Below are positions 41,028-62,941 of a stretch of DNA of 64,000 nt, piece after piece. Numbering within the stretch: the first letter of the stretch is position 1; each line of letters opens with the position of its first letter. A program made the translations under genes and the position numbers. A model generated the notes under the pieces. It did not search any database. It was not told where the DNA came from and saw nothing but the letters and a program-made list of their open reading frames with translations. Source of the DNA: Balanoglossus misakiensis (taxonomy: Eukaryota; Animalia; Hemichordata); contig CM082596.2 in the NCBI GenBank assembly GCA_040954595.2, positions 8,445,124 to 8,509,123 of the forward strand, written 5' to 3'.

Positions 41028-41120
41028 TTAACCCTTTCACCCCCATGGTTCAGTCCAAATCCACCGTTTTCTATGGTAAGGTGGGACCACTAAAGAGGGT
41101 ACTTGAGGTGAAAGGGTTAA
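41028..41120. mobile_element. 93-bp piggyBac-type MITE
   Basis: TTAA-CCCTTTCACC...GGTGAAAGGG-TTAA; related partial copies at ~39650-39722 and ~55615-55698. Confidence 0.75.
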
Positions 41121-42006
41121 TACTTCTGTAAATCGGGAAATTTTTGGGACAGGAAATTTTCACGATATCAAAAGAGGCAACTGTTAGGCGACAATTAGTT
41201 TTCGTGTTCTTGTATTTCACTGCATCGTTATCTCTGAAAAAATTGTTTACGCGACTTCTTTATATTCTCGTTTTTGGCCCTTGTGTAGTTTGAAAATTTC
41301 CCGTTTTACAGAATGTATCATTCATAGATAAATGCACACATACACAAACACACATACTGGTACATGATTCATACACATTTTAAGCCTATAATTCAGATTT
41401 CCATAAATTTATGGCAAATGAGCAGTGTAAGCTAAAGAACTTCCAGAGTAAATATTTATTTTCAAGTAAGAAAATACATGATTTCCAGGGTAATGTTATT
41501 ACATGGTTATGCACAAAATGCAGCCCTGTATGGACAAGGGCTTGTATTTTTGATGTGTGGTATCAATAACCTTCATGAAAATTGTTGTCATGTCTTTAAA
41601 TGCACTGTAAATTATTTTTGTTTACATTCAGCAGGTTAAAGGTCAAACGTCATCCATATTGGGACTCCATATACTAAAAAAATACAGAAAGTTATTGTAC
41701 GATCTAGTGCCAAAAGTTATGGTAGTAGTTGTATAATGAACCTATTATACAAATAATACAAATAATATTTTCGAAATATTACAGCAACCAGAAAAAGATT
41801 TCAGTGCTTGTTAATAAGTTTTCATCATTTACAGATATAGCTGTGCAAGAAAGCGACAGATAATAAATAGAGTGAATCAATTGTCAGTTTGCACAACTGA
41901 GAAAATGTGTTGTAGATGGTATCCTTTGGTGCCTTGAAACACAGTCACTGTGTGGAGTGACTGTGCTTGAAACCAACACGTTTGATAAGAATTGTCCAAT
42001 CAGCAG

Positions 42007-45000
42007 CTAGGATGCTTCAGCCTTTTGTTTCTTTCGCTTTGCAAACCATTCATCACTTTTGTCTTCTTCTATTGCCTGCGAAACAACAGAGGGAAGATGT
42101 AAATGGGCCAAGTCATACCAGTAGTGCCCAAGCAATATTTTCTGAGACTAACATGTCAACTTAAAGGGCAAGGATCGTCTTATGCGCATGTTCCAAAACC
42201 AGAGACTCTGGTTACAAATATTGTATACAGTCAAAGCCATAAAGGCAGTGTGCTGTCCCAACAACAGACAAGTTGGCGGCGACCATAGTCTGTGTCAGAG
42301 ATCAGGAAAATTGGGTGAAAAGAAGATACAAAACTAAAGTCTTCTTTATCAAGGCACATAAAATGTGGAAGGATGAGGTGATCATCAGCCTTTAAACAAC
42401 ATGTCATTCATAATCATTCACCCACAATCCAATGCAGCAGGATGATGAGTTTTCAAGTTTTTGCAGACAGTCATATTAAAGTTCCAAACACGACATCAAA
42501 AGTGAAAAAAAAATGACGTTGAGTACCTTGTTTAGAAGTTCATCTCCTTTGGCGTCAGTTTGAGACAATTCCCTGAATGCTTCGTCACCAACAAAGCAGA
42601 TCTCGTGGTTATCCTGAAACGAGATCGGTAGAACTGTACTTTCTGTATAGCACTCATCAATTTTTCTGCGTCTCAGAAAGTCTCGATCTCTCTCGCTGTC
42701 CTTTTTTCATTAATTCTGTTTGATACAAGACACTGTTTATGTTATTCTACATGTGGATATATAGTGAATCAACGTTCAACCACACACACCTTCCATCCCA
42801 CTTGCAGACACAAGAGTGAAAAACTCACCAAAATGAATAATCGGTGTTTACCATTTATTCATTTTGGCAAGATTTTTACTCTCATATCCTACAAACGACG
42901 CTTACCATGAGTGCGTGGTATCTTAACTGCTGTAACAAAAGAAATCATTTACTCACAACCACAGCAGGCTGCACTTATCACTATCATATACCTATAAACG
43001 AAAAACTTACAGGATCAACCAGAATAACAACCTCTACGGTAGCTTTTCCCGGCGTGTCTAAGCTCACCAGTGGTGTAATTATAGTTTGGTGGTTTTCTTT
43101 CATTGCACCTTCTATGGCAGGAAGCTGGCAAAATAATAATTCATGTATGACAATTATTACAGGGTTATACACAAAATACGGTCATGTACAGATGAATAAA
43201 GTGTTTTACAGTATAACTAGTACAGGCACCAAACCTAATCTCCCTCAATCGCCTCAAAACCACACAATAGTCTTACCTCACTTCTTGGACATGAAAATGC
43301 AATTCTTCCGAACGCCGTTCCGTGGTCCACTTTGTCACCTCCCAAATCATGCAATTCCAACTTACACTGACTCTCATTAAAACCCAGCACTGCATGTTTC
43401 TCTCTCTGTTCATAGACAGTCATTCCACAGAGTTTGGTCCAATAATCTGGGGAAAAAAAATAAAATTCCCGAGTTTGAAGTGATAATTCTATCACATAGG
43501 TTTGTATGGTTGCTGTTTTGCTACAGTGTCATGAACTTCAGAGTAGCATTAGTCTCGGTTACCCAGACCCCTCTGCTTCTCCCGCTGCGCTCCAGAAAAG
43601 GGTCTGGGGACATACCATAGAATGATTTGTAAAACAAAATGGCCACTGTCAGGATTTCGGACAGCCACTGATTGGCTGATCTGTCGGTATGACCTGGGTC
43701 ACTGCAACTCAACTATACTAAAATGGTGATGCAACATGTAGTCAGTGACTCTTGGCAATGTGTGAGTTGTTGTCTTGTCACATCAAGAGACCGGTACTTG
43801 CTGGTTGTTGTGGAAATTGAAAAAGACTAGAGTAGCATTAGTTGAACTTTTTATTTACACACCATATTGGGGAGATGGGTAAAGCCCTACATGATGTCAA
43901 ACACCTGCAACATGTTGAAGTTCAAAATCAACTTGTTGAAAATGACAGCCAGCATGTATCTGAGAAAAAGAAATCCAGGATTGTTTAGTCAGTAATCAAT
44001 AGAATGCACCAAAATAGAACCATAAAAGACAAAGAATCACTCACTTACCAACTGATTTTTGCAAGTCTGAACTGCCCAAAGAGACTTTCTTCACTGGATC
44101 TAAAACAAATGTGTATGAAAACAGTCATAAGAAACATACATACTACTGGTCGAGTTATTCTTGAAAAAAGTCTTCTTGTTTATCATTACTACACGTATAC
44201 GATTTTCACCATTGTCAAATTGTAGACTACACTGTTTATGTCAACTAGGACCAGATTTGGACAAAACATGTCCACACACACCAGGCTGGGACCAGAGTCG
44301 ACCACAAACCAACCCCATCAGACTGGGACCAAAATTGTCCGGACAATGGCCGGCCAGACCCGTTCACACCTGTTTATTTTTGGCTCGGCCACGGACCTTG
44401 CTAGGATAAGGTCCTAGCCTTTTTTGAGTAATGTGAACGGCCTATATATGAGCATGATATGAGGAGAGAACAAATTGTTCACACAGACCTCACAACAACT
44501 CTGCACTCATCAAACAAAACGGCTTATCGCATTCACTGACCTGTGGCCGGTTGTGGCTTGTCTAACAAAAAGAATTTGTATCCACCAGGAGCTTCCACCA
44601 CAAACTGTCCCGTCTCCACTTCTTCAATCGGCCACTGAATATTTCTGGCATTCTCTATGGCCTTGGTGGATTCAATGGTTATTCCCTGATGTGGCACAAA
44701 TACAGACAGACAGCATGAACAACTAAAGGCTAATCAAATAAATTGAACAGTGCAACAACCAAATACCTGGCGTGCTTTTACTATAAGTATCGTGTTGAGA
44801 AATGTACGGTCATTTTTAACGCTTTGACTCTATCATGTCATGTATTGCATTAACCAAAAATTAATTATCAGTCCATGGGTGTAACGAGAATGTTTCTAGT
44901 ATGTACATCTCCGGTGCACTATGATGTTCCCAAACCTTAGCAAAACAATGTGTTTCTTAGAAACTGTAGAAAACTGCCATTGTCAGTCGGTTTACATGTA

Positions 45001-47182
45001 CTTTGATTCAGCCTGAACACTAGTCTAGAATCCAGACTTTTGGTGTGTTTTTTTTTGCTATGCTCCACACATATGGGTTAGCATAGCGAAAAAAACAAAC
45101 AAGTCTGGATTCTAGACTACCTCACATGCTCAAACTGCAGAAAAACACAACACACTAATCAGCATATACTGTAAAACACTTTATTTTCGCGAGCAATAAA
45201 TTTTCGCGAAATACGCGAGAGCCAAAATAGCGTGAAAATAAAAATAGTGTAAATTTTTTTAAGATACTGATGGAGTGAATGAAATAAGAGAACGCAAAAA
45301 TTAATGCTCGCGAAACAGTGGCCTCTCTCGATATCGCGAAAATTTCAACTCGAAAAAATAAAGTGTTTTACAGTATTAAGGAACCAGTCTAGATTTCAGT
45401 ATTTAATTGTCACCTGACACAAAAGAGTGAACAACACAAAGATGAAACTTACCATAAAATCATTACCGAGTTTATAATGGCCAACCCCATAGTTATAAGT
45501 CAATTCCATGACAAAATGGTTGTCTTCATCACCATACCCTACCATGGTTTTACTCCATTTGCCATCATATGGTCTAAAAAATAAAACCACAATAAATATG
45601 CCTTCGTTCAATGAATTACCTGGTGACAGAACGTAAGCAAGGTTATGAATGATGTTGGGGAGAGTAGATTTCAGGTATGTATGTACTGGGGTATAGAAGT
45701 CTGATATGCATTGTACCATACTTGTGTATGTAAATTCGAGTACTGTAAAACACTTTATTCTTGCCAGCAATAAATGTTCGCGAAATACGCGAGAGCCAAA
45801 ATAGATTGAAAATAAAAAGTCTGTAAATTTTTTTTGAAGATAACGATGCAGTGAATGAAATAAGAGAACGCAAAAATTAGTACTCGCGAAACAGTGGCCT
45901 CTCACGATATCGCGAACAATTTCAACTCGCGAAAATAAAGTGTTTTACAGTATGCAGGGAACTACTAGGTGTATACAAGTCTAGATACTCAGAATTCAAT
46001 GTCCTTCTCTGTGTTTATACTATAGTATGCATTTTGAGATATACTTACATACTTCTAGATCTGCAATTCTGCTAGTCCAACAGACCAGTGACTATGCCAG
46101 TGCAAAATTGTATGATTGCTAACACAGAGTATGAAGGTTTGTCTGGATATTTTGATTTTAATAGCTTATATATGTTCAGTACATAGAATACTGTAAAACA
46201 CTTTATTTGCACGAGTTGACATTTTTGCGATATCGAGAGAGGCCACTGTTTCGCAAGTATTAATTTTCATGTTCTCTTATTTGATTCACTGCATCAATAT
46301 CTTCAAAAAAAATTTACACGACTTTTTATTTTCACGCTCTTTTGGCTTTCGCGAAAATTTATTGCTCGCGAAAATAAAGTGTTCTACAGTATGTGCTGTA
46401 CGTAGAATAACTCAGTACACACCCGTTGCATGTAGCTTTGCATCCTTCTTCAAACTCTTCATGCCTCAAGACCTAATGATAGCAAATCAAATCATTAAAT
46501 GAACACAAAAGTTGGTTTATAATCCGAGAATCCGATTCAAAGAAGCAGGTACTGGTATAACACATATATACCATGCTGCCATCAGCTGAGATAGTAAATC
46601 ATGAATAAACTTTTGCTATGAACATTTGTTTAATTTAACTAATTTTTTTACACAAAAAGTGTATTAATGATTTATGACAAGATATACCCGTCCTGGTACT
46701 TGGAAAAGAAGCCAATTTTGAAAGTTGAATATTTGTTTCATAATGGAAATCTTATAGGTATTAGGAATTCAGGTGTAATCCATAGATACCCTGAAACTTT
46801 CTGAATGGATAAAAATAGCACAGTTCAGTAATTCATGCACAATGTCATGATCTGAACATAAAACACCAGCATTCAGTGATTCATATTTTCATGTATATGT
46901 TTCAGGGTATCAGTGGAAAATAGCTAAATTTGCAATAAACCATAATGAAACAGTAGGTCCATATTTATTTATCTCCCCCCCCCCCCGTCTCTACCTGTCT
47001 GTGTCCATAGACCCCCCCCCCCCCCTCTACTGTCTATGCTGTGTCATTAAACCATTACATAACAGTGTCTGCTGGCAGAGGTGCAAGGACATTACCTTCA
47101 TGCCAAGTACTTCCCGATAAAACCTGGCAGTTTTCGTTCGATCGCCAACTTTGAACACAAAATGCAGGGCACGCCTCGACAT
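42007..47182 (-). CDS. GLOD4: Glyoxalase domain-containing protein 4, 9 exons
   Basis: Exons 47182-47096, 46472-46423, 45573-45453, 44685-44541, 44099-44049, 43446-43277, 43124-43011, 42613-42527, 42075-42007. Translation [107 protein letters not shown] matches GLOD4. Confidence 0.96.
45021..45119. mobile_element. ~100-bp palindromic MITE with TAG...CTA termini
   Basis: TAGTCTAGAATCCAGACTT...AAGTCTGGATTCTAGACTA with inner TTTTGCTATGCT / AGCATAGCGAAAA arms. Confidence 0.7.
45167..45375. mobile_element. MITE family A copy (reverse orientation)
   Basis: Family-A TIRs; GLOD4 intron 3. Confidence 0.9.
45741..45952. mobile_element. MITE family A copy (reverse orientation)
   Basis: Family-A TIRs; GLOD4 intron 2. 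Confidence 0.9.
46189..46391. mobile_element. MITE family A copy (forward orientation)
   Basis: Family-A TIRs; GLOD4 intron 2. Confidence 0.88.
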
Positions 47183-47489
47183 CGTGGAAAATCGTGGCTA
47201 AACAGTGGTGTACACTGGAAATAAGTGCAATGTCGGGAATATTACAAAACGACTGACTCTGACGCTCCCTACAACATGTACAACACATGAACTGCTGGAA
47301 CTGGAACCACTCACAGCGCCACCAGCGGTGGAAGAGGGCCAGGACACTGACCTTGAATGACACGGGGTCATATGACCTGCAGAGTTTCAGACTGCAAATG
47401 TTGTATCTTCCAAATGGAAACCTATCATTGATTATATCTTAGACCAGCTTGCCAATTTACAGGACAGTCTAGCGACAGAGAGCTGTAAG

Positions 47490-49814
47490 ATGGTTTCAAG
47501 AGAGAAAATTCCATACAATTCCGATATTATCCCAAATGGTAATGGTATTCAAGAAGAAAACTTCGGTGAAAGTGACGATCCAACAGCCAGTCTGTTGTCG
47601 ACGAGCTCAACAAGCAGACCAATAGTCAAACCAAAAGACAGGTAAATACTAGTGATTTATTGTAAATGACGAAAATCATATGAATGTCAAGTCTGTCGAT
47701 GTAGTTCAACCATCGCGAGGTGAAGTTTCACCGCGGTTCACTTGAGTGCACGACACCACTTCCGCATTTCAACAACTTAATATTTAAAGCCTTATCACTT
47801 CGCTCAAGGATATGCCTATTGTTATAGGATTGGGTCGAAGTTCTGGGTGGCGTGTCCATGGCGAAGCACGTGACTCGTTCATAGAGGGTGGGCGGGTGGG
47901 TTATAGTTTTCTTATCGGAAACCGCATAACTTTCCCTATCAATTCCGCCATATGTGTCCTTGACTCGGCCTGTTGCAAATGAGGGAGAAAGTCCGGCTGC
48001 ATTGTTACCTATTTATACCCCACAAATTTGCATATTGCGGATCCATATCACTCAGTGATGCGGCTTTGAATAACTTAATATTTAAAGCCTTATCACTTCG
48101 CTCAAGGATATGCCTATTGTTATAGGATTGGGTCGAAGTTCTGGGTGGCTCTCCTGGCGTGAACACCATGCCTCATACATACGTACCCGCCTCCTTAAAT
48201 CTGATATATCAGAACATATCATGCACATGCCCATTCCAAATCCTAACCCCCCATACCCCACACCCATTTCACAATTCTACTCCCCTATCCTACATACATG
48301 TACGCACACAAAAGAGATACACATGTATTTTGCCTGAAGACTTATTTATTGCATATGTCATTTCAACAATAGGTTACACAAGGAGAACGTCTGAAACCCT
48401 ACCTCTCTATCTTATTTGCTTATCGGAGAAAGGTAGTTTTCTGGACTCGCGCTACACAATGCGGATATACTAATTAATGACTACTGGGAAAGGCCTTAGA
48501 GAAGCCCACCAGGTCGTTCATATATTGATAAGCCTCTGCTTTCTGGTCTAAATTATCCACTATAGCCATTAAGCTATCTGCTATGGCTCCAACTTGAGTT
48601 ACTTTTGCTAGTTGCATATAATAGTTGGCTGTCTCTTCTGCCCGCCAACCCACATGGCTCATTAGCGCATGAAGGTCATTACCCTCCATAGCCAGGGAAA
48701 TAGCGCAAGCACTTCTGCAGCCATGAGGAGTTTCACCTGCATCTATCCCTACTTTTTGTAAGTAGGTTTTTAGTCGGGAATACGCCAATTGAGATGAGAA
48801 AGGTTTTTGATCCGTAGAGCCATGTGAATTGATTGGCCGGAAGAGATAACCCGTTGACAAATCGATTCCAACACTCTGCGCCAGCTTGAAATAAGCTTCG
48901 ACGGTGTTAACTGGACATACGAAGGGATCGGCGCATCGCTTAATTGCAAATACATTAGTAGACGAGCCTCTCAAGGTTTTTCCAAAAGTATGATTGAATA
49001 ATAATCCAGAGTTATCGGGAAAACGCATAATTTCCTGAGTCTTGACATGACCTAGGTCATGTGCCCTGTCCCCTGAAAAGGATAACATCTTAAAATATGC
49101 GAGATCCCTTGCCAATACGTACATGCGAGCTGGTGCGGTAGATGACACCATCTGATTAAGTATATGCTCAAAAACCAGCTTCAATTTATTTATAAAAAGG
49201 GGTGTGGCCTGTTTTGCTGTTATCATGGCTCTTGCTTGTTCTTCTGCTATTTTCTTTAAGTATCTAGCGACCAAAGGCGATTCTACCGGGTTAGGCCTAT
49301 CTAAACCGACCTGTGAGGAAAAGGCTTGATAGAATGTTTTCAATTTTGAAACCATATTCTTAGCTGTGGTAACACGAATTCTCTTAGGGCATTGGCATTG
49401 TTGATATCCAGGGAGACCTAAATAGGGACAGATTATTGCGTGTACTTGTGTTTTAGCATCCTTGTCCTTATAAATGAGAAACCGAACTATATCTTGTGCT
49501 GATGCCATCAATAATGATTTTGGTTCATCCAACCCTGTTAGGAAAGCTTCGAATTGTTGGATTAAACGATCCTTTTGTATGTCGTGTGCCGACCGATTAC
49601 CCAGCACTTCCTTCATTCTACTGTCGATGGCTTCAAGATTAAGTGTGCTACCACTATCATGGATGGGCTGCTGTGGCTGTAGGGGCACTTTTGTGCCACA
49701 CGCCTTGCATCGTTGGGAAGCACCATTGGTCGTACCACACATCCAACATGCTTGCTGTGTGAGGAAATGAACATTAATATAATTACCAAATCAAGAGGTT
49801 TTTCTTTTTCTTTT

Positions 49815-49878
<64 letters not shown>

Positions 49879-52800
49879 TTTTCCCTAAATTTAACACCTC
49901 AAGAAAGAAAAATGATTTTCCTTATTGTTGCTGTTATTCTGTTGTTGTCGTTATTTTTCGTCTTTTCTACTTCTCATATTGGGCTAAAATGTCATACATC
50001 CTGACTCGAGCGCAGTGTACACCCATTGTGTTCTCACTCATGACGTACCAATTTAACAGCGAACAGTGCACACGGAGCTCTACATGGCTTATACCCCTCT
50101 CGTGAGGGCGCTAGGATTACTCCCATGTCACCCTCCTCAGCCAGTTTTACGAATTTTGACGCTGACTGCCGGATCTCCGGCCAATACGAGGGGTAAGCGC
50201 AGCGTTTATGGACGATGATGGTAGCATTCAAATGCATTTGCCTAACGTGTTTAATGACGGCATGCGTGAGATGGAAAGGCGGATACACGTAAATTCTATC
50301 CCTTGGCGAGAAGTGATAGTGGAAAAAATTTACCCCAGCACTATCGGCCTGTGGAAATGGGGACACAAAACTCTCGAGTCTGGCGTTCGATGACGTGGCC
50401 ATAGCGTCAATAGAGTGGGGGCCACACTCCTTCTGCACTATAGCCCATGCTCTATCTGACAATTTCGCGTGGCACATGTCTAACTCTCTAGAGGCAAAAT
50501 CGGCTAGATTCTGGTGTGAGCGGACGTGAGCAATTGTTAGGCGGGTATTATGGGTAACACAGAAGTGGAAAATTTTCTTTAGCAATTCATTTAACTGCAC
50601 AGATTTAGATCCCGGGTACCCCTGGTTCCAGGCATGCACAAGGGTTAATGAGTCTGACAAAACGTCGAGACGAGAATTTGAAACTTCTTGGCTAAATGCC
50701 GTGAGGGCTCTACAAAGAGCTTCAGTTTCTTTATCGATAATCGACTTTTTTTGCCATTCCTCCTCCCAACCATCACTTACGGTAACTGCTTTTTCCGAAT
50801 GTGGCTGAAACACCGCCCCCCATTTATATGAACTGGCATCAGTGTACATTTTCAGTATAACGTGAGTTTCGTCTGGCCACCTAAAAGTCCCTGCTGTCTC
50901 GACAATTTCCAACCATTGGCTGAGTTCGCGTCTGAGAGGGCCTTTAATCTGAACAAGGCTTCGTGCTGACACTTGCGCACTGGCCAGTGCGCGAGCCATT
51001 CGTCGTATATACAGCCTAGCGCACGGAATCGCGAGGGAGAACGAGATACACTTTCCCATTATTTTTTGCAATTCTGTGACCAGGATTGCAGATCGTAATA
51101 AGGCGTATCTAACCAACTCTACAAAACGTGCCTTCTTTAAATCTGGTATACTGAAGGCCCGCTGGACGGAATCTACCGTCATACCCAGGAGGACCAAGGA
51201 TTGGACTGGCGAAAGTACACTTTTTTCCAGGGCTATAAAGTAACCTGCGTCAATACATAATTTTAACAAGATGTAGGCAGATGCTTCGGTCAGCTCGAGG
51301 CTCGTCCAGTGGCTCGCATTTAAGCGGAAGGCCCCTGCAATTCTCAAAGGCCCCCCATGCCTGTCATCTATATATTGCAAGCATGGAACACCGAGCATAC
51401 GCGCGTGACTAGTTATTGTGTACCCTAACGTATGATAAATGTATGCTGAAGATTTCCAACCAAACGGCAATGTGTTATTAACAAACCAGTATCCGGCCCA
51501 CTGGAAACCAAAATATGTGCGATCCTCCTCTCTGATAAACACATGATCATACCCACTTTTGTCATCTGATTTAAAATGATAATCATACTGGTTCAGATAA
51601 CGTGAAACTTCTATTAGTTTATCTAGTTTAAAGGGTTTATCTACCATCCACAGATTAAGGTACCTCATGTCGATACACATCCGGGGCTTTTTAGGCTCTA
51701 TTGTGATAGGCATCACAATATGCGGTGGAGGGTCAATTCCGACCAAACCTACAGCTGATATCGCCCCGGTTTTAATTTTTTCATTAATCGTACTTGATAT
51801 AAAATCTATAAATTGTTGACAAGCTGGGGCATTTGCAAAGACCTTTGCAGGAGGGGTAGGAGTGTCGTAGAAAACTCCCTTAAATGTTCCCTTAAACGGC
51901 TGAAAATATTCAGTCACGTTAGCCCCTTCCCTAATCCAATTCATAATTTGAGCCTGATTACTAGTGTCATGAGCCATTTGCCGCCATATCGCCTGGTGTC
52001 TGTGTACTTCCCCAGCTATGAAGTCGTGAGGGTTTCGGAACTGGAGGAGGCTGGGAGATGCCTTGCACAAACCGGCTGCCACTTCATGTGGGTCCGGGGA
52101 CTGAGCACTTCGGTCCTGTTGAGGGACTCCCTCAAGTGTTACCCATGCGTAAGTAGAACGTCTAACTGGCCAAAGTTCAGAAGAGAATTTTTCCCAGGGC
52201 TGTGGTACCCCCTGTAAGACAAATAACAAGGTATGTATGAGAAAAGAGATCAGCCCGAAACCTACCTACTTTTTTTGTTAAAGGGGGGAGAATAATAAAG
52301 CCGCTGCTAAAAGAAAGTTTTCTCTTTTTTTTTTTTTTTTTTTTTTTGGCTCGAGGGAATCCCTAGACAGGACCTCGCAAACGCAAGGTTGCAAAATGCA
52401 AAGGGCCACATGGGCCTTCCCTGTGTGCGGGATATAACGGTAATGCAAAAATGGCAAAGCATGCATGGAGAAATCGGGAACAGGGACAAGGGGGGAAAAG
52501 AAACACAATCTACAGTTATTCCTCTCGAACGAAATCTTTAATATAGGTACTCAAATGAATTACATATCAGTGTGTGAACCATGAAAAGAGCGTGCCACGC
52601 AAATCACAAAGTCCGTGTAATCTAAGACTTCTTTTTAGTAGGGCAAGCTCTGGCCATATGGCCAGCTTCTCCACATGCATAGCAGGTAATGTTATTAACA
52701 TTCCTTCTTTGTCGGTTGTATGGCTCATATCGTTGACTCTGGGGGTGACGCGGCGAGTGTCGCAAAAACTTGGTAACTTTCGCCGCGATCTCTTCCTCCT

Positions 52801-55800
52801 CCTTGTTCCCTAGGAGTAACACCAACAGACGCCCTGCATCCTTTCCAAATTCGTTGGATTCGAACTGCGCCAGGACAGCTCTAAATCTAGATAACTTGGG
52901 GTGGGCGGCTACAGTAGCCCTATCCACCAGCGCCCGCAAAGCAGTAATTAGCTGTTGACGAGTTGACAGTGCGGGTGTGTGAGCCATTTCCATAACTTTT
53001 GTTAAAGCATCATCTACAGACGCAGTCTCTGCTATATCCTGCAGTCGTTTCACCTGCCGTTTGAGTGCTTCTAACTCGCTCGCCTGAAACCAAGCACAGT
53101 ACATGGTATTATTGCTGATATAGTTCAAGCTTATGAACGTAATTCTTACTCGTTTTGTGCAAGCCACCGCATACAGTATCAATCCATTGATACCCCTGAA
53201 GCACCCATCACTCGTCACTGGGTTCCTGCCTAACCAATCACATCAGGCCACCCTCGCAGGCACTCGCCTACCTGGGCCTTAAACTATCGGCACCCTCGCA
53301 GCGACCCCGGGTTACTGCCTGGCCGATCTCATGGCCACCCTCGCAGGCGTTCAGCCTACCTGGGCCACGCTCAACATAAACGTGTATGACATACGAAAAC
53401 ATAGGGTACATGACTAAAACGTATCGAGAGAGAGAGTGAAAGAGAGAGCAAAAGTGAGAAAGAGAACGCAAGATACGCACCTGTCGCTCATACCATATCG
53501 ACAGGCACACACACCTGCAGAGGAGCTGGGGGAAACAGCCAGCAACCATAAAAACTACCTAGGACGGAAAACAGCGTGGAACACACGAACACACCGCGAA
53601 GAATGAGAGAGAGAGAGGGAGAGCGAGCGAGAGAAACAACGGAAAGAAGCACGTTACCAGCCACGCACCAACGCAGAAACCACGTAATCGAAACAGGAGC
53701 TCACCTGGCTGGTATCCTTTTTTGTGACTGGTTGGGGCTCTCCTCTAGCTGTCGCACTAATCGCAGGACCAGTAGCAGGCTGCGGATTTCCACCGTGTAA
53801 CGCAGCAGCAGGAGGCGGCTGTGGGGCCGTAGACGCCCGGGCTGGCCGGTGCTGTTCAACGAATGCCGTAGCGGCTGGTGCAGCTGGTTGCGACGAAGCC
53901 ATGATGTGTGTGCAACGTGTGACTGTTGCAAATGAGGGAGAAAGTCCGGCTGCATTGTTACCTATTTATACCCCACAAATTTGCATATTGCGGATCCATA
54001 TCACTCAGTGATGCGGCTTTGAATATCTCACGCACGCATCACTCATCTTGGTTTTCGCCATTGATTTGTGTGTGTGTCCAATTTAACCTTGATGAGGAAC
54101 CGTGGCCCTGACTCTCCCTCGGTTGTTTGTGTGCCCCAGACCCAATAGGTATTGTAATACAAAGCCGGGGGAGGTGCAAGGCAACGCCCACCCCCTCCCC
54201 CGCACGCAGCAAAATTTAATCCATACCTGTCCTGACTCCTGTATTTTTTGTGTTGAATATAATGAGCAACATTTTTTCAGACGATCCACGATCTGTCCTT
54301 CCTAGGTCTAAGCTATTCCAACAATGAAATGATTGGGAGTGGTTGTTGAAGGTGAATGTACTATAAATCATTTTCAATGTTTACATTATTTTGCTGTTGA
54401 AACACTCCACTGTGGAGTGACCGTGGTTGAAACAATTGGTGATTCGGCAAGATCTCAAAAGGCTTGATTATTTACCTTAGCAACTGATATTGGTAACCAA
54501 GTACCGTAATACAAGTCAAACCAGATGTACATGTATATTGAAAGTAAGAATAGGTGCAGAATTTTAACCACCCACCCCCACCCCAGCCATGTGAAATCTC
54601 GCCGGGTCTTGTGGAGTTTTGAATGTACATGTACATTTAGTATGTCAGCAAAGGTTTCTGTGTAATAACTGATACGCATCTTTTTCAGTTTCAAAGCTGT
54701 ATACCTGATCATAGGCTTTATGAGTATGGGATCTCTTTTACCATGGAATATGTTCATTACTGCCAGTGGGGTAAGTTGCTTTGAATGAAAAGCTACTTTT
54801 ATTTAGTAAGAGGGTCTCAAATACAGTCTTGTGGGATAATGCTGAGTCAGCACTTTTTTCAAACTCCCAGTGCTTAAAGTTTTCCTGTGTGGAATATTTC
54901 TGAACAGATCTATAAATTAAATCAAGGACAGTGTTTTCTTTATATTGTTTAATAATGCTCCTCTTTTGGCACCATTTGTGGAAATTTCTAGAAAATGACA
55001 ATATTGGAACACTGTTGTCTCAACATTCTATATGTAAGACTATGGATTGTGATCACCATGCATTGCGTCTAGGTAGTCATCTACCTTACATTGTCATTAA
55101 TTTCCTTTCTTTATCTTTCATTTGAATTCAGTATTACAGGGCGAAATTCAAGAGTGTTAATGGTACAACTAATTCTACAGAATTCCAAGAGACGTTTGAA
55201 AATTTTTTCTCTGTATCAGCCAATGTGTCCAATATCCTGATGTTATTCTGCAATGCAGCTCTCAAACATTTGTAAGTTATTTTTGTGTGTTTGTTTGTTG
55301 AGCTTCAAGTGAGCTGTGTATATTATTACAGCGTGTCTTGTACTTTTGTAGCTTAAAGGTATACGATCACCTATGGAAAATTAGCTATAGTTGCCATGGC
55401 AAATTGAGATCTAGCCAATCACAAATTTTCAGTGGGTGGCACACACGAGAAAAAGAGCGCCATCATATGTTCTTTAGAACACTCAAATACGCCATTTGAG
55501 CCATATATGTAAAGCGGAGGTGACTGTATACCTTTAAATGCTCTCTAAGTCCAAAATGTAAAATTCTGATCAAAGATAACCTGTTATGAAGATTATGCCA
55601 AGTTTATTACCCTCTCACCCTGGGTTCCCTCTATAGAGGTCCAACTTTACTACAGGAAACAATAGATTTAGACCAAACCATGGTGTTGAAAGGGTTAAAT
55701 AAGGTTGCCACAGTGTCTTCTGTATTTTTCTGGCTATTAATATATTCATACTTTTCATGAAACGCATGTTCAAAAGCAAACTACACATGTTTTCCTTTAA

Positions 55801-58800
55801 AAGCAAACTACACATGTTTTCCTTTAAAACTCAAAAATCTCTATTAAAATTTTGGTCAGGTAAGCTTTTGTCACTAAAGATTGACAAAATGTTGAACACC
55901 AAAAAATGTAAACACATTCTGCTCTTAATTAATCCTCCAGGGCAAACTACCGGTATACCCATGGATTAAAGGGACAAAGTCTCTCTCTCTCACTTCCCAT
56001 TTTCCGTTAATATCTTTGATACGAGACACCGTTTATGTTAATGTACATGTGTATATGTAGTGAATGAACGTTCAACCACAAACAACTTCCATCCCGTTTG
56101 TAGGATATAATCTAAAAATCTCGCCAAAATGAGTAAACGGTAAACACCGATTATTCATATTGGCGAGTTTTTCACTCTCGTGTCTACAAGTGGGATCGAA
56201 ATTGTGTGTGGTTAAACGTTGATTCAGTGAACAGTGTCTTGTATCAAACATATCAAACGTGATTAAAAGAAAAAGGACAGCGAGAGAGAGACTTGGTCCC
56301 TTTAAGTGTCATTTATGCATGTGTGTCTGTGTGTGCAACATATACACCAGTACATGTACTTGCCTGACTTACCTTGGCTTAGCAGTACTTTACATGACTG
56401 ATGATGTTATCATGGTTTAATGTCTGGTTTGTTTTCAGGGTGACCTTGAACATGCGGATGTATTCAAGTATGGTTGTGATACTTGTCATGTTTGTATTTA
56501 CATCCGCGTTAGTCCTTGTCCCAACAGACTCATGTGAGTGTTACTGCTTTTACCATAAACGTATCAAACCTTTTACGCTTTCGCATTCTCAATGTATCAT
56601 ACTTTGTTCTTTCGCAACTTTGTTATGCAACTTTTCCCCCTGCTTTTTTTGCTCTGAAGTTCACAAAAATTTATCGTTTGCGAAAATTTCATGTTTTACA
56701 GTACATGTTTAATAGTTACCCAGTATAGCTGTTCATAACCGAACATGCAGAAACTGTTTCCGAATGGAGAACCCTATGTGACTAGGTGTTTTGAAACCCC
56801 CTAAGTGTTGTGGAATGATTAAGCACACACTAGGTTCATATTAGATACAAGTAGTAATTCTACTGGTAGTGCTACTACTGCTGTATGTATTAAAGGGACC
56901 ACACACAACTTTAATCCCACTTGCAGACACGAGAGTAAAAAACTCGCCAAAATGAATAATCAGTGTTTACCATTTATTCATTTTGGCGAGATTTTTACTC
57001 TCATATCCTACCAACAGGTTGGAAGTTGTGTGTGGTCGAACATTCATTCACTATATATCTACATGTAGATTAACATAAACGGTGTCTTGTCTCAAACATA
57101 ATTAATGGAAAAAAGGCAGCGAGAGAGAGACTTTGTCCCTTTAACATTCTGATAGACAGGATATATAATCCAACATTTTGTTCTACATATTTTCACAGGG
57201 CAATCATTGTTCTTCGGTATAACCATCATCAGTGTTGTCATAATATCATGTAAGTATCAAATTCTCTGCGCAAATATTGGTGCAGATTTTAAAACAAACT
57301 GTGTTGAGTTTCCACGAAGAATTAGCGCAGGGTATCAACCCATCCTATTAAGATGTTTATGTCTGCGTACTTGAAGCCCCATGAGCTGCCACTTTTAGGA
57401 AACATTTTAGCAATAAAAGACTTCAATCTTCTTATCCTTAGCTGACTGACGACATCATGTGTGTATACCATGAGAGTTGTGTATTCTAGGAACAGGTGGC
57501 TGAATAACGGGGTGTGGCACCCATTTATTATTTCACTTGTTGACATTTAAATGTTCAGCCGCAATCAGATGTTGCTGATACGTTCGAAGTACTAAAGTAC
57601 AATCCTGAAAAAAAGCAACAAAAGGCAGCTGATGGGTTTAGGTAGGAGACAGTAGATAACTTTATTTTTGTTGCCAAGCAGTATTTGGTGAAAATATTTC
57701 TTTCTGAACTATTTTTTTTTTTTTGCAGTGTTCGGTGGTTTGTTTCAAGGAACTTTGCTGGGATTAGCTGGAATCTTACCATCAGAGTACATGCAATCTG
57801 CCATGAGTGGTCAGGCTGTAGCTGGAATATTTGCATCTCTTGCAAGTATTCTGTCAATTGCAGGTAACCATATCTTTTATTACTTGTTAATATTCTATCT
57901 CACGAGAAACGTACCCTGGCTTGTGCACGTCTATTTAGATTTTATATTATACTTAAAAAGGAAAAAAACAAAACAAAACTCCACACTATACTTTCAATTT
58001 TACTGATCATACATCCTAAATAAATGTTTTTCTTTTAATTTCCAGCAAGTTCTGATGTTATGGACAGTGCCTTTGGTTACTTCTTGTCTGCTGTTGCTGT
58101 CATGGTTCTCTCTCTTATGTTATATGTCATTTTGCACAAATTACCCTTTTTCAACTTCTACTATCTCAAAACTAAAGGTAAGGTATCACCAATACATAGC
58201 TTGTCAGTATTTGAAGATGTGGTAGATTAAAGGTATACGGTCACATCCAAATTTCATATGCCCAGATATGGCTGAATTGGTGTATTTTAGCGTTTCAAAG
58301 AAGATACACTGTGTGGTGGAGCTCTTTTTTTTCGCGTGTGCCATCCACTGAAAATCTGTGATTGGTTAGATCTCAATTTGCCATGGTAACTGTAGCTATT
58401 TTCCTATAGGTGACCGTATACCTTTAATAGAGTAGTATTTTTGTGGAAAGATGCTGAAGTTTGTGTGGTGTTCAAGGCCAAGTAATGGAGATTGAAAAAA
58501 AACAATACCTGAGTGATATGACTAGAAATCAAGTTGCATAAATGTGACATTCTATTGTGAGAGCAGCAAGGGACACTTTGCAACTTAGCGGTACATGCAA
58601 ATGAAGTGTAGTGCAATCACTGGGACAGTAAATTTGACGTACAAATGCTTTCTCATTGGAATTTTAGATGAAGAACTAACTGATGGCAGTATAAACCAGT
58701 CTCTTAGCAGTTCTATTTCAATTGTCAACAACAAAACCAAACCACCATTTTTACTTATCTTCAAAAAGGTAAGATTTTAAGGCTCCATTTTTTTCAATGT

Positions 58801-60887
58801 TTACAATTAGATCTTTGCATCATGTCTAGAACAGCAGAAAATTAACTAATGAAAATTACAAAAACCACTTCTTTGTGACAGCAAAACTTCAATAAGCAGA
58901 ATTACATTATTGCAAAAAATAATAAACAGTGCTGATTCGGCCAAAAAAAATATGTGCTGTTCCGATTACATGGTTTTTAAAAAAAAGGGTAGGTAGGTAG
59001 GGAATTTTTTTTTATTTTGCATTGTTTTTAAAATATTTCTGACTGCCGTTGTGTAAAAGAATGACATCATAGTTCTCGCGTGATTCACGCAATTTTCATT
59101 AATTTTGTATGTTATTTGACATTGTTATCTTTACTTCTGGGTTTATGAAGCTCTAAAAAATTTAGGGTCGGCGGGTTAAAATTAGGGGAGGTCGGGTAAT
59201 TGAACAGCACATATTTTTTATTTTGTCCATATAAGTCGGGTTTGGATGATTTAATTTTATCTGATCAATTTTAATGACATGTTTACAGATCCAGTTAATG
59301 GCCATCTTGATAATCACAGTGTTTGCGGTCACGTTGTCCTGTTTCCCAGCCATTGCATCAAGAGTGAGTTCCATGAATCAACACAGCACCTGGGGTGGTA
59401 AGTGTAGAAAACTAAAATATCAAGTATAATTTTACCGGTCGTTTTAGTAGGCTTCAGGTGTATGTCTTTATTTTTTGTATTTGTGTTCTAACAGCACATT
59501 TGCAAGAAGTGTGGGACTTTGCCTAATGATGGAATAAAAACTACATGTATGTGTAATAATACAAACACATGAAATGATTTTTCTTTACCCCAATGGGTGT
59601 AAAAACTTACTTGAATATGTACCAAAAGCCCCCAAATTTCTGCCCCTATAACTGTATATGTTTATTGAATTACAGCAAAGTACTTCACACCAGTGGCGTG
59701 TTTCTTACTTTTCAATGTGTGTGACTGTATTGGCAGAACTCTGACCAGTCTCTTTCAATGGGTACGTATCACTTTTCATCTCTAAGAAGGAGAGAATGTT
59801 ATTTTTAAGTCAGGTAGTTCAAAGTATGTCTTCTGAATCACACAACAGCTTCTGGAAGGTTAAGCAAATTTACTGAGAACACTGCCAAAATTAGTTTGAT
59901 CATAATATCATGGTCTGATTTTGGTTGATTGTATTAGATTATAGCTTGATCAATACCAGTGAATTTTGTGAGTGTCATCACTGTACATTACTTTAGTACT
60001 GATAATGTATTGTGTTGTTGCATATTTTTTCATGTCCGGAGCATGGAAAATTCTAGGGATGACTGTGTGTGTAAACTGTATGTACGTACGTACGTACGTA
60101 CAAAAAAACAAGAAAACATTTTTAAAATACCACTAAAATTATGAAACTACTATGTATGTATCTATGTATGAAAATGTATACATGTACAAATGTATGTGTG
60201 TGTGTATGTGTTCATATCAGCTCTGACCACCAAATGTGAAATTTGTTGCAAAGTACTATAGAACTTGTTGCTTTTTTTGGAGAATCTAATTTGTCCATTA
60301 TTCTATTGTTTTCTTACAGCCTGGTGAATCTGGAATTCTGCTGTCTCTTTTCGTTATTTTAAGGATAGCTTTTATACCGTTATTCATGTTGTGTAATGTG
60401 ACACCCCGACATCACACCCATCTTGTATTCGACCAGGATGTATACTTCATTGTTTTCATGTTGGTGTTTGGCATATCCAACGGTTACCTTGGGACGCTTT
60501 GTATGATCTATGGACCAAAGTGAGTAACAACATTTCTATCAGAGATTGCTTTATCCATAAACCTTTTACCAACATTTCAATTCTGGCTACTTTATGTAGG
60601 TTTTTATTTCGTGCTAAGGGGTCAAATCAAATAATTGCATTCTGGGTAAAAGGTTGACAACTCACTGTAGTAAGATATAGAATAAATGACATGTTGACTG
60701 TATTTCATGATTTGGTCAAAACTATCTGTCTTTTTAGTTAGCATATTAAACTTGCCTTTGCTTTATTTCTTTCAGCAAAGTTGACGAGGAACACAAAGAG
60801 ACTGCTGGTGCAATGATGGCGCTGTTTTTAGCCGTTGGTTTGGGTCTGGGAGGAGCTTTGTCCTTTGCAGTTGCTGCCGCCATATAA
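47490..60887 (+). CDS. SLC29A: Equilibrative nucleoside transporter (SLC29A family, ENT1-3 type; long acidic N-terminus as in ENT3), 12 exons
   Basis: Exons 47490-47641, 54689-54770, 55132-55271, 56439-56533, 57199-57249, 57729-57863, 58046-58177, 58668-58768, 59289-59397, 59676-59761, 60320-60519, 60776-60887, all GT-AG and in frame. Motifs PKD.FKAVYLI..GSLLPWNMFITA, YMQSAMSGQAVAGIF, VTLSCFPAI, FLLFNVCDCIGR, LRIAFIPLFMLCN, SNGYLGTLCMIYGP, ETAGAMMALFLAVGLGLG. Confidence 0.94.
47774..47851 (-). repeat. Split direct repeat B2 (78 bp, element 3' end)
   Basis: Identical to 48072-48149 (AACTTAATATTTAAAGCC...TTCTGGGTGGC on +). Confidence 0.96.
47970..48072 (-). repeat. Split direct repeat A2 (103 bp)
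   Basis: Identical to 53923-54025; abuts B1 with one shared A at 48072. Confidence 0.96.
48072..48149 (-). repeat. Split direct repeat B1 (78 bp)
   Basis: Identical to 47774-47851. Confidence 0.96.
48474..49754 (-). CDS. Tyrosine recombinase with N-terminal Zn ribbon and ALOG DNA-binding domain; exon predicted to start at the acceptor at 49754
   Basis: Catalytic residues FSGDR (R), TPHGCR (HxxR), HVGW and NYY (Y). ALOG signature FLIYKDKDAKTQVH..CPYLG..CQCPKR..NPVESPLVARYLKKIAEEQARA. CWMC-x9-CKAC begins two codons before the first ATG (49742). Confidence 0.93.
   Translation of the reverse strand, partial: QACWMCGTTNGASQRCKACGTKVPLQPQQPIHDSGSTLNLEAIDSRMKEVLGNRSAHDIQKDRLIQQFEAFLTGLDEPKSLLMASAQDIVRFLIYKDKDAKTQVHAIICPYLGLPGYQQCQCPKRIRVTTAKNMVSKLKTFYQAFSSQVGLDRPNPVESPLVARYLKKIAEEQARAMITAKQATPLFINKLKLVFEHILNQMVSSTAPARMYVLARDLAYFKMLSFSGDRAHDLGHVKTQEIMRFPDNSGLLFNHTFGKTLRGSSTNVFAIKRCADPFVCPVNTVEAYFKLAQSVGIDLSTGYLFRPINSHGSTDQKPFSSQLAYSRLKTYLQKVGIDAGETPHGCRSACAISLAMEGNDLHALMSHVGWRAEETANYYMQLAKVTQVGAIADSLMAIVDNLDQKAEAYQYMNDLVGFSKAFPSSH
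50034..52211 (-). CDS. Reverse transcriptase - RNase H - DIRS methyltransferase-like domain; exon predicted to start at the acceptor at 52211
   Basis: RT motifs KPRMCIDMRYLN, DDKSGYDHV, LPFGW and YIDD; RNase H TDAS..WGA, DKETEAL, SDS and NLADFASR; MT-like IDAMATSSN..YVYPPF. The ORF-track start is TTG and the first ATG is residue 85. Confidence 0.95.
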   Translation of the reverse strand, partial: GVPQPWEKFSSELWPVRRSTYAWVTLEGVPQQDRSAQSPDPHEVAAGLCKASPSLLQFRNPHDFIAGEVHRHQAIWRQMAHDTSNQAQIMNWIREGANVTEYFQPFKGTFKGVFYDTPTPPAKVFANAPACQQFIDFISSTINEKIKTGAISAVGLVGIDPPPHIVMPITIEPKKPRMCIDMRYLNLWMVDKPFKLDKLIEVSRYLNQYDYHFKSDDKSGYDHVFIREEDRTYFGFQWAGYWFVNNTLPFGWKSSAYIYHTLGYTITSHARMLGVPCLQYIDDRHGGPLRIAGAFRLNASHWTSLELTEASAYILLKLCIDAGYFIALEKSVLSPVQSLVLLGMTVDSVQRAFSIPDLKKARFVELVRYALLRSAILVTELQKIMGKCISFSLAIPCARLYIRRMARALASAQVSARSLVQIKGPLRRELSQWLEIVETAGTFRWPDETHVILKMYTDASSYKWGAVFQPHSEKAVTVSDGWEEEWQKKSIIDKETEALCRALTAFSQEVSNSRLDVLSDSLTLVHAWNQGYPGSKSVQLNELLKKIFHFCVTHNTRLTIAHVRSHQNLADFASRELDMCHAKLSDRAWAIVQKECGPHSIDAMATSSNARLESFVSPFPQADSAGVNFFHYHFSPRDRIYVYPPFHLTHAVIKHVRQMHLNATIIVHKRCAYPSYWPEIRQSASKFVKLAEEGDMGVILAPSREGYKPCRAPCALFAVKLVRHE
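52622..53083 (-). CDS. Gag-like protein body with C-terminal CCHC zinc knuckle
   Basis: CYACGEAGHMARAC (CX2CX4HX4C); coiled-coil-like start ASELEALKRQVKRLQ; preceded by acceptor TGCTTGGTTTCAG ending at 53084. Confidence 0.88.
   Translation of the reverse strand, partial: ASELEALKRQVKRLQDIAETASVDDALTKVMEMAHTPALSTRQQLITALRALVDRATVAAHPKLSRFRAVLAQFESNEFGKDAGRLLVLLLGNKEEEEIAAKVTKFLRHSPRHPQSQRYEPYNRQRRNVNNITCYACGEAGHMARACPTKKKS
53705..53902 (-). CDS. Predicted leader exon of the retrotransposon (66 aa, Pro/Ala-rich)
   Basis: First ATG downstream of repeat A1 (CATCATGG context); 198 nt ending at consensus donor CAG|GTGAGC in phase 0. Confidence 0.7.
53923..54025 (-). promoter_or_regulatory. Split direct repeat A1 (103 bp, element 5' end) containing a putative Pol II promoter
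   Basis: Minus strand shows octamer ATGCAAAT (53986-53979) and TATAAATA (53970-53963), about 65 nt upstream of the leader ATG. Confidence 0.75.
55353..55537. mobile_element. MITE family C (TTAA-flanked, Kolobok-like)
   Basis: TTAAAGGTATACGATCAC...GTGACTGTATACCTTTAA. Confidence 0.85.
55966..56305. mobile_element. MITE family B copy
   Basis: TTAAAGGGACAAAGTCTCTCTC...GAGAGAGACTTGGTCCCTTTAA. Confidence 0.85.
56890..57144. mobile_element. MITE family B copy with internal deletion
   Basis: TTAAAGGGAC joined directly to internal sequence; intact right end GACTTTGTCCCTTTAA. Confidence 0.8.
58227..58427. mobile_element. MITE family C copy
   Basis: TTAAAGGTATACGGTCAC...GTGACCGTATACCTTTAA. Confidence 0.88.
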
Positions 60888-61018
60888 ATGTCAACCAATT
60901 GCATGTACCGGGTAATATTCATGGAGATCTCATCATTTATTTACACAACAACTGACTGGTTCTCAAGTTTTGATTCCTGACATCATGTTAGTAGTTGTTA
61001 TTGCCTGACGCGGTGACC

Positions 61019-61428
61019 TAGCCTAGTCCTAGTCGATTTTGTCCGCTTTGCTTCAAAAACTAACGTCTAGTCTCACTCATGCCACTGGCCCAATAAAACC
61101 CCATACCCCTTTGCTGGGAATTGTGATGTCACAGTCACTAGCGTCCCTCTGAAGTCACTCACATAAACTGAACAATGGTGATTGGGTGTAAGGTTATAGT
61201 GAAGGCAGGGCTAATTTGAATTAAAAATGTTACCCATCCTTAATTACACATATGTATATCCTTTGTCCAATCATTGGAAAAACAAAGTCTCTGATTGACT
61301 TCAGAGGGACGCTAGTTACATCACAATTCCCAGCAAGGGGTATTGGGTTTTATTAGGCCAGTGACTTGAGTAAGGCTAGGCAGTAGTTTTGGAAGCAAAG
61401 CGGACATAACACGGCTAGGACTAGGCTA
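61019..61428. mobile_element. 410-bp foldback DNA element with long TIRs and a 9-bp TSD
   Basis: TAGCCTAGTCCTAG...CTAGGACTAGGCTA; arms stay complementary for about 140 bp; flanks GCGGTGACC / GCGGTGATC (8 of 9 identical). Confidence 0.85.
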
Positions 61429-61786
61429 GCGGTGATCAGACTGAGCCTGGGAGACGGAACCAAAAATGGACAGATGATTAAAATGAGTGTCCATGAAAAA
61501 CAATGGACTGTGGTGGTAAACCATGAGAAGACACAGGGTGATCTTCGGGATCACATTTTACAAACTATTTTTTCCAAGTCCGAATGTATGTGGAAATGAT
61601 TCATCCAGGTTTCAATATAAGATTCCAGTTACTTGGTGCTAGTGTTTCTGTATGTCCTGCTGTTGTTAATTTCAATGTCATCTTGCCACTTCAGATATGA
61701 CAAAAAATATATTTTGGCTGAGGTAGTTGCTTCAACTTGCAACATAGTGGTACATGTATATATGCCTAGGTAAACTGGTCTGGAAT

Positions 61787-62000
61787 TACTGTAAAACACT
61801 TTATTTTCGCTAGTTAAAATTTTTGCGATAGCGAGAGAGGCCACTGTTTCACGAGTATTAATTTTCGCGTTCTCTTATTTCATTTACTGTATCGTTTTCT
61901 TCAAAAAAAAGTTTTACGCGACTTTTTATTTTCACGCTATTTTGGCTCTCGCGTATTTGGCGAAAATTTATTGTTCGCAAAAGTAAAGTGTTTTACAGTA
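61787..62000. mobile_element. MITE family A copy
   Basis: Family-A TIRs. Confidence 0.88.
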
Positions 62001-62559
62001 CCAATTTCATTTGTAAGTTCTCCTTTCTGTTCACGGTTTGATACCATGAAATAGAAGCCCCATGCCTTCAAGCATCCATGACATCAAATTTGAAATTACA
62101 ATTTTCCCCAATCATAATCTCTTTCATGGGGTGTTTTTAAACATTGTATGTTGTATTGGTGTATAAAATTTGCAAAGCCAACCAGTCTGACAATTCATGA
62201 ATGTAACATTTCCTGACTAAATGTCTTCCGGTATAAAATTTGTTGTATCACAGCTGATCACATTAATTGAGATTGCAATTCCTGGTCACAATTGGTTATG
62301 GATTGTGCTCATAATTTAATTATATTAGAAAGTAAATTTACATCATTTGATATGAAAATCACAATTTTATTTTTACCCCCAAAAAGTATTTACATTTTCC
62401 ATTTCCAAGTATGTGGGATGCAAGCATCACATGTCTGTACAATGCAGTCAGTTGAAATGGAACCCATCTTGAATAAGTTTTCCTTTCTTATCGTCTTTAT
62501 ATTTCATGAAGGGTCAAATGGCAATCTTGTCTGTGGCTTTTGTACAATAGGGTACAACA

Positions 62560-62941
62560 TTAAAGGTACACCATCAGCTCCAATTTGCATGCGCCCATAT
62601 ATGGCTGAAATGGCTTATTTGAGTGTTTTAAAGAACATATGGGGCACTTTTTTCGCGTGTGCCACCCACTGAAAATCTGTTATTGGCTAGATCTCAATTT
62701 GTCATAGTATTAAAGGTATACGGTCACAGATGCAAATTTAGCTACAGTTACCATTGTAAATTGAGATCTAGCCAATCACAGATTTTCAGTGGGTGGCACA
62801 CGCGAAAAACGGAGCGGCACCAAATGTTCTTTAGAACGCCCAAATACGCCATTTCAGCCATATATGGGCGTATGTAAATTGAAGGCGACTGTATACCTTT
62901 GAACTGTAGCTAAATTTGCATAGCTGACTGTATAAGTTTAA
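62560..62941. mobile_element. Two nested family C MITEs in opposite orientation
   Basis: Outer copy 62560-62709 resumes at about 62903 (ACTGTAGCTAAATTTGCATAGCTGACTGTATA); inner copy 62710-62902. Confidence 0.75.

Follow-up and report, generated by a model that had tools for sequence, protein, structure and literature searches.

A PAT-like tyrosine-recombinase retrotransposon in Balanoglossus misakiensis with a coding leader predicted to be spliced onto three genes

A 64,000-nucleotide (nt) stretch of Balanoglossus misakiensis (Hemichordata; GenBank assembly GCA_040954595.2, contig CM082596.2, positions 8,445,124 to 8,509,123; hereafter "the window," in whose coordinates all positions are given) carries an intact PAT-like, ALOG-bearing tyrosine-recombinase retrotransposon. 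The element is 6.26 kb long, lies on the minus strand throughout, and has three intact, non-overlapping open reading frames (ORFs) between split direct repeats: gag, reverse transcriptase (RT)-RNase H and tyrosine recombinase (YR). Probably, Gag, the RT-RNaseH-methylase protein and YR are made by splicing one 66-codon leader, transcribed from a single promoter, onto each of the genes. An initial annotation, made from the letters of the window, had proposed such a shared leader with three acceptors; the proposal is now supported by relatives and by independent eukaryotic gene models, and is still drawn from DNA.

The leader coding exon (53705..53902) opens with the ATG at 53902, contains 42% Pro plus Ala, and ends in phase 0 at the donor CAG|GTGAGC (53705), exactly as first annotated. 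Scored with generic frequency matrices, this donor ranks 1 of the 364 GT sites in the element. The phase-0 acceptors were also correctly placed, at 53083 (gag), 52211 (RT) and 49754 (YR); by a crude pyrimidine score they rank 28, 7 and 2 of 404 AG sites, and the predicted introns from the leader to gag, RT and YR are 621, 1493 and 3950 nt. RT has an in-frame stop shortly above its acceptor, as annotated (a TAG, with 18 codons in between); its first Met was miscounted as residue 85 and is residue 79 counted from the acceptor. An in-frame TGA lies 13 codons above the YR acceptor, and the first Met of YR (residue 5) does fall inside the first Cys pair, between Cys3 and Cys6 of a zinc motif (CxxC..CxxC) that spans residues 3-20. 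An earlier ATG, in a different frame from the leader, occurs at 53955, 15 nt downstream of where the TATA box begins. We infer that this one lies upstream of the transcription start. The arrangement is taken to go beyond chance because it is kept in relatives, not from this single copy alone.

Relatives were collected by an RT alignment search. The best 80 of 361 confirmed metagenome stretches and six loci from bacterial genome bins gave 86 loci, which were grouped into 48 families at the nucleotide level. The six loci (L081-L086) are an animal-type retrotransposon inside bacterial bins, likely host contamination. Locus searches with single sequences and searches of viral contigs with the alignment gave no match, and an atlas search with gag returned only scores of 0.81 or less. 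Among annotated RT relatives, the nearest are those of two acorn worms, Ptychodera flava (63%) and Glandiceps talaboti (54%), and they group with the window with full support.

Across the relatives, the genes retain the order gag, RT, YR and are separated by non-coding spacers. For each ORF we used those loci in which the conserved anchor was intact and the contig reached far enough upstream (28 gag, 37 RT and 32 YR loci of the 86), and took the best-scoring AG upstream of the anchor, ignoring frame. Counted by locus, this AG was in phase 0 in 22 of 28 (gag), 32 of 37 (RT) and 29 of 32 (YR); counted by family, in 16 of 22, 18 of 22 and 14 of 16. The binomial p values for the family counts against one third, 2e-4, 4e-6 and 1e-5, are too optimistic because the families are kin. 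Several off-phase loci look, by eye, like frameshifted copies of phase-0 families. Median acceptor scores for gag, RT and YR were 4.2, 5.8 and 7.7 bits; coding control windows gave 0.5, 1.7 and 2.7. We then looked at the phase-0 families, counting the window among them. The acceptor coincides with an in-frame TAG stop in 10 of 18 for gag, 14 of 20 for RT and 7 of 15 for YR, so that the ORF begins at the splice site, and 11 of 18, 11 of 20 and 11 of 15 lack any ATG from the upstream stop to the anchor. Phase-0 acceptors are spread over the whole RT tree, which has 37 rows and leaves out families with <300 contiguous RT residues. Donor, acceptors and phase, whose conservation the initial annotation had left to a comparison of relatives, are kept together with the leader composition in RT families about 35-50% identical to the window.

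Leaders were sought with a phase-blind scan for ATG-led, Pro/Ala-rich frames that end at GT; it covered the DNA upstream of RT in the window and 30 families, 49 sequences in all. Nine families had a leader (11 loci), always in phase 0; there was also one phase-1 match in the tail of gag itself and one match on the opposite strand. Scanning whole loci added two loci and one family, for a total of 13 loci in 10 families with leaders of 39-54 codons, all in phase 0. These leaders are alike in composition, not in sequence, and fall in several subclades of one 22-row clade of the RT tree.

Gene models offer a second line of evidence. At three lancelet loci (P0078, P0123-P0126), RefSeq models join a Pro/Gln-rich leader of about 74 amino acids to an RT 37% identical to that of the window, and a further model (P0176) has the same leader and diverges directly after the leader end. 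At two loci of Mytilus californianus (P0296, P0298), an N-terminus of about 50 amino acids is joined to a YR 36% identical to ours; in a model from a sister species of mussel (P0297), a different sequence is joined at nearly the same point. The lancelet models are the only ones with a Pro/Ala/Gln-rich start among 446 proteins, most of which were presumably called by prokaryotic gene finders on DNA. In ten large YR clusters, only 2 of the about 400 members examined are named, and no leader-like N-terminus was found among those listed. An oyster RefSeq model (P0292, three loci) has an N-terminus of about 150 amino acids followed by a gag-like coiled-coil start and YR. In mollusc-type families, the leader may be longer or made up of several exons.

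Directly after gag we found a predicted poly(A) signal that is absent from the initial annotation: ATTAAA at 52537..52542, 82 nt after the gag stop and followed by a GU/U-rich stretch. A second signal, AATAAA at 48345..48350, lies 126 nt after the YR stop, upstream of repeat B1, and is predicted to serve the RT and YR mRNAs. We searched for either hexamer within -12 to +138 nt of the stop and compared the counts with 300 dinucleotide shuffles. After gag, a hexamer is present in 25 of 33 families (shuffle mean 6.8, maximum 16), and after YR in 6 of 13 (mean 1.4, maximum 5). A signal after RT was rejected (3 of 15 families versus 1.5 expected), and in intron 1 the hexamer occurs in 2 of 15 families with a shuffle mean of 1.6. 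The hexamer after gag makes it likely that gag is an alternative last exon.

The steps of expression may thus be sketched as follows. Transcription would start in repeat A1, from one promoter. Splicing of the leader to gag and cleavage just after the ATTAAA ending at 52542 would give a short mRNA for Gag, which is probably the abundant species. Where transcription continues past this site and the leader is joined instead to 52211 or 49754, the products would be RT and YR mRNAs that end near the AATAAA at 48350, and unspliced read-through to B2 would give the genomic RNA. As the AATAAA lies upstream of B1-A2-B2, the spliced mRNAs would lack the repeats for rebuilding the element ends, which would explain why the introns are retained; by eye, no leader-fused ORF was seen in the N-termini among the loci. 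The minimal job of the leader would be to supply a start codon. That its length and composition are conserved points to a possible further role, but codon-level GC needs could account for both.

Three runs from one study (share 0.11-0.12), probably of DNA, contain a related family that is about 94-95% alike in long pieces spanning introns and ORFs. None of the nine joints listed for these probably-DNA runs is a predicted junction, which carries no weight either way. For the same family, one 31-letter unaligned end falls at the RT acceptor.

Several points weigh against the shared-leader reading, besides the kinship of the families. The three-way splicing is deduced from genomic sequence rather than from observed RNA junctions, and the splice scores come from matrices of generic frequencies. 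Control windows gave phase 0 in 18 of 44 (gag), 16 of 44 (RT) and 16 of 31 (YR) cases, and an in-frame ATG precedes the anchor in 7 of 18 gag families (this one included), 9 of 20 RT and 4 of 15 YR families. The reverse strand after gag also has a poly(A) hexamer in 12 of 33 families. In the upstream scan, 21 of the 30 non-window families had no leader; short or decayed contigs or another leader composition may explain this. The Pro/Ala leaders found are confined to the 22-row clade of the tree, and the whole-locus scan gave two false matches inside RT ORFs, both in phase 0, along with two on the opposite strand. The RefSeq joins are gene models whose underlying RNA support is not visible, and the acorn-worm RefSeq models P0001, P0002 and P0052 start at internal Mets without a leader. 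Of 126 candidates in a weak search with the lancelet leader, two clusters were returned, one being the leader-RT model and the other a chimeric model; there was no clean leader-gag or leader-YR protein. Finally, the gag frame contains an ATG of its own (53104), located 7 codons above the acceptor, as the initial annotation had cautioned.

This last point bears on a two-way design, in which the leader is spliced to RT and YR and Gag is translated from the ATG at 53104 on unspliced or separately started RNA. The gag acceptor scores lowest of the three, 7 of 18 families have an ATG before the gag anchor, and no leader-gag protein was found. Yet many ATGs precede 53104 on the unspliced RNA, and the phase-0 acceptor in 16 of 22 gag families, the in-frame TAG in 10 of 18 and the lack of an ATG in 11 of 18 speak for a spliced gag, so that we regard the two-way design as unlikely.

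It is still less likely that the acceptors serve other exons, such as non-coding exons behind internal promoters, a trans-spliced leader or host exons, with translation starting at the first internal Met. The joins have not been seen in RNA, trans-splicing exists in some of these animal groups, and the acorn-worm models do begin at internal Mets. However, if the upstream exon were non-coding, the conserved phase 0 of the three acceptors and the donor that matches them in phase would go unexplained, and translation from internal Mets would truncate the conserved N-terminus of RT and the zinc ribbon of YR.

A spliced polyprotein, with donors near the gag and RT ends or early in gag that remove the stop-bearing spacers and chain the ORFs, is highly improbable. 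The window does have a phase-0 CAG|GTGAAA 10 codons into gag, and the oyster model P0292 runs from a leader through a gag-like coiled-coil start into YR. However, the best donor in the last 120 nt is in phase 0 in just 2 of 23 gag and 5 of 17 RT families (median scores 0.6 and 1.3), the early-gag donor has a median of -0.1 over 18 families, and a poly(A) hexamer follows gag. The lack of a conserved donor at these places argues against chaining, and both polyprotein splicing and a conserved early-gag donor were rejected on donor phase and scores. Chance AG sites in pyrimidine-rich spacers, with the ORFs reached by reinitiation or frameshifting, are the least credible account: any single site fits a short consensus and the spacers are T-rich, but position, score and phase are kept in 16-22 families per ORF relative to coding controls, and the spacers of relatives (23-955 nt) come after stop codons.

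The splicing of one leader onto three acceptors, followed by an early poly(A) site, is a concrete and cheaply testable answer for a widespread clade; to our knowledge, how the downstream ORFs of DIRS-order elements are translated is poorly known. If it is true, this is a retrotransposon with an unspliced genomic RNA that codes for no enzyme, and the design offers a possible explanation of how introns persist through reverse transcription. More tentatively, the elements of this marine-animal clade may each be a miniature spliced unit, in which a common disordered Pro/Ala tag co-assembles all three proteins, competing poly(A) sites set the Gag excess, and cleavage before the 3' repeats keeps the introns indefinitely. 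Where ORFs begin at splice sites, upstream in-frame stops and absent start codons are not signs of decay, so some "inactive" or mis-annotated elements may be intact. In the portion of PMC3537659 available, all metazoan copies of ALOG-containing DIRS1-like retroposons are inferred to be inactive from stop codons, whereas the element here has three intact ORFs and repeats 98-99% identical.

The coding exons have recognizable domains. The gag exon (52622..53083, 153 codons) ends in a C-terminal CCHC knuckle (zf-CCHC, E 3.8e-07). The RT-RNase H-adenine-methylase-like exon (50034..52211, 725 codons) has an intact YIDD, and the YR exon (48474..49754, 426 codons) contains the CxxC..CxxC motif, an ALOG domain (E 6.7e-17) and a catalytic domain (Phage_integrase, E 1.2e-08). 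The last 190 residues of the RT ORF include a conserved YVFPP-like motif. By sequence, this methylase-like region is faint (Pfam Dam, E 0.087, in 1 of 15 members), and a PDB sequence search gave no match. For its structural model (predicted local distance difference test score, pLDDT, 82), the top six fold matches are adenine methyltransferases (PCIF1, KsgA) with borderline E values of 1e-3 to 4e-3, none of which passes 1e-3. The modeled tail thus best resembles adenine methyltransferases, at a borderline level. In the relatives P0087, P0096, P0119 and P0120, the ORF is longer by about 200 residues and has a hydrolase-like domain (PF13472 for P0087 and P0120), a domain that the available portions of the DIRS literature ascribe to Ngaro elements.

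The ORFs are separated by 410 nt (gag-RT) and 279 nt (RT-YR), in line with the distances of about 410 and 280 nt first noted. In each spacer (52311-52347 and 49793-49886), the element strand carries long A tracts and, after them, a similar GAAAA..TCTT motif; these lie about 40-100 nt upstream of the acceptors of RT and YR. Predicted intron 1 (53084..53704) has GT/CT-rich tracts and a repeat pair of about 58 nt (53366-53309 and 53278-53220). In many families this intron is packed with tandem repeats of about 20-70 nt, of which the window has a two-copy version only; such repeats lie upstream of gag in L004, L005, L013, L016, L021, L025, L027, L034, L036, L040, L045, L054, L068 and L085. Contigs L011, L026, L037, L051, L069 and L082 continue from YR into the 5' part of the element, with YR before gag/RT or a leader after YR, and may represent assemblies collapsed through the A repeat, tandem copies or circles.

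The split direct repeats are arranged as A1...B1-A2-B2, as in Pat1-like elements. A1 (53923..54028, 106 nt, 99% identical to A2) has a TATA box at 53970-53964 and is the likely promoter; B1 (48065..48149) is 98% identical to B2 (47767..47851) and is abutted by A2 (47970..48075). On the left (54020-54030) and right (47765-47775) of the B-A junction sequence, the element ends in ..ATT and ..GTT, and in this it resembles the NTT termini of DIRS1-like elements, as given in the available part of PMC3266345.

Beyond B2 by about 590 nt is the first exon of a glyoxalase-domain gene (47093-47179, minus strand; Pfam Glyoxalase, E 3.8e-4), presumably GLOD4-like, and directly after B2 is a CGGAAGT motif that we take to be ETS-like. 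Given these two features, the insertion may lie within a host promoter or close to one. An 89-codon open frame on the plus strand (47376-47645), without a significant Pfam match, ends at an AG|GTAAAT-like donor. The flanks (41000-46400 and 55300-63000) contain several dispersed repeat families with inverted arms, resembling miniature inverted-repeat transposable elements.

The zinc-finger Gag, the YR on the same strand and the internal repeats 3' of YR are those of PAT-like elements in PMC4157794, within the portion available, and the methyltransferase-like domain after RNase H, weak by sequence, agrees with this. The PAT-like assignment fits on features; the RT/RNase H tree contains only the relatives found here. 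Ngaro membership was rejected, as Ngaro elements lack the methyltransferase domain, and so was membership in the inverted-repeat DIRS1 group, as the ends are direct repeats and no bounding inverted pair is among the 25 of 44 pairs listed. The YR, with an N-terminal zinc ribbon, ALOG and catalytic domain, is that of ALOG-containing DIRS1-like retroposons. Extra 5' ORFs of the Ectocarpus type, including a seven-transmembrane protein, are absent from the 5' region of about 940 nt, which holds the leader and short frames only; according to the excerpt of PMC3537659, such ORFs are not defining for animal ALOG elements.

Searches of the literature, within article portions and with the Goodwin and Poulter classics and Repbase outside their range, returned no spliced expression of DIRS or PAT elements. 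In the available text, neither "intron" nor "splic" occurs in PMC3266345, PMC9210276 or PMC3537659; "intron" is absent and "splic" occurs only in unrelated senses in PMC6681497 and PMC4157794; PMC7192593 mentions splicing of a marker intron only; and PMC9341512, PMC12477816 and PMC9940879 have nothing relevant. The statement in the initial annotation that DIRS-order ORFs typically overlap is true of half of 28 DIRS1-like elements, which have long overlaps, whereas Ngaro and Viper usually have none (PMC3266345, in part). The type of element is already known; the design of its expression, with one leader and three acceptors, was not found in the portions of the literature searched.

Parts of this design are familiar from other systems. 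Foamy-virus pol and retroviral or gypsy env mRNAs use one 5' donor, alternative acceptors and one promoter. In those elements, which have long terminal repeats and a DDE integrase, Gag is translated from unspliced RNA, and the leader either codes for nothing or contributes just a few codons. In the adenovirus major late unit and the IgM heavy chain, a proximal poly(A) site competes with skipping to downstream acceptors; these are not retroelements, and the adenovirus leader is non-coding.

Among known mobile elements, and within the portions of each source available, the closest in architecture are the ALOG-containing DIRS1-like retroposons, which share with the element here a zinc-knuckle Gag, RT with RNase H, an adenine methylase-like domain, a YR zinc ribbon followed by ALOG, direct terminal repeats and marine invertebrate hosts (PMC3537659). 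The clade is also the source of plant ALOG transcription factors (PMC3537659). The 5' region differs, consisting here of a coding leader and an intron rather than the 5' ORFs of the Ectocarpus element. The structure also matches Pat1-like (echinoderm-form) PAT elements of the DIRS order, for which the excerpt of PMC4157794 does not describe spliced expression. In expression, the nearest published parallel is the short GAG RNA of plant Ty1/Copia, which is spliced and prematurely terminated (PMC5580714, in part). There, as is predicted here, splicing is tied to a premature 3' end and gives an mRNA dedicated to Gag, with structural protein made in excess. However, Ty1/Copia Pol comes from full-length RNA as one polyprotein, whereas in the element here none of the three ORFs appears to be expressed without splicing, the first coding exon is common to all of them, and the unspliced RNA would encode the leader only.

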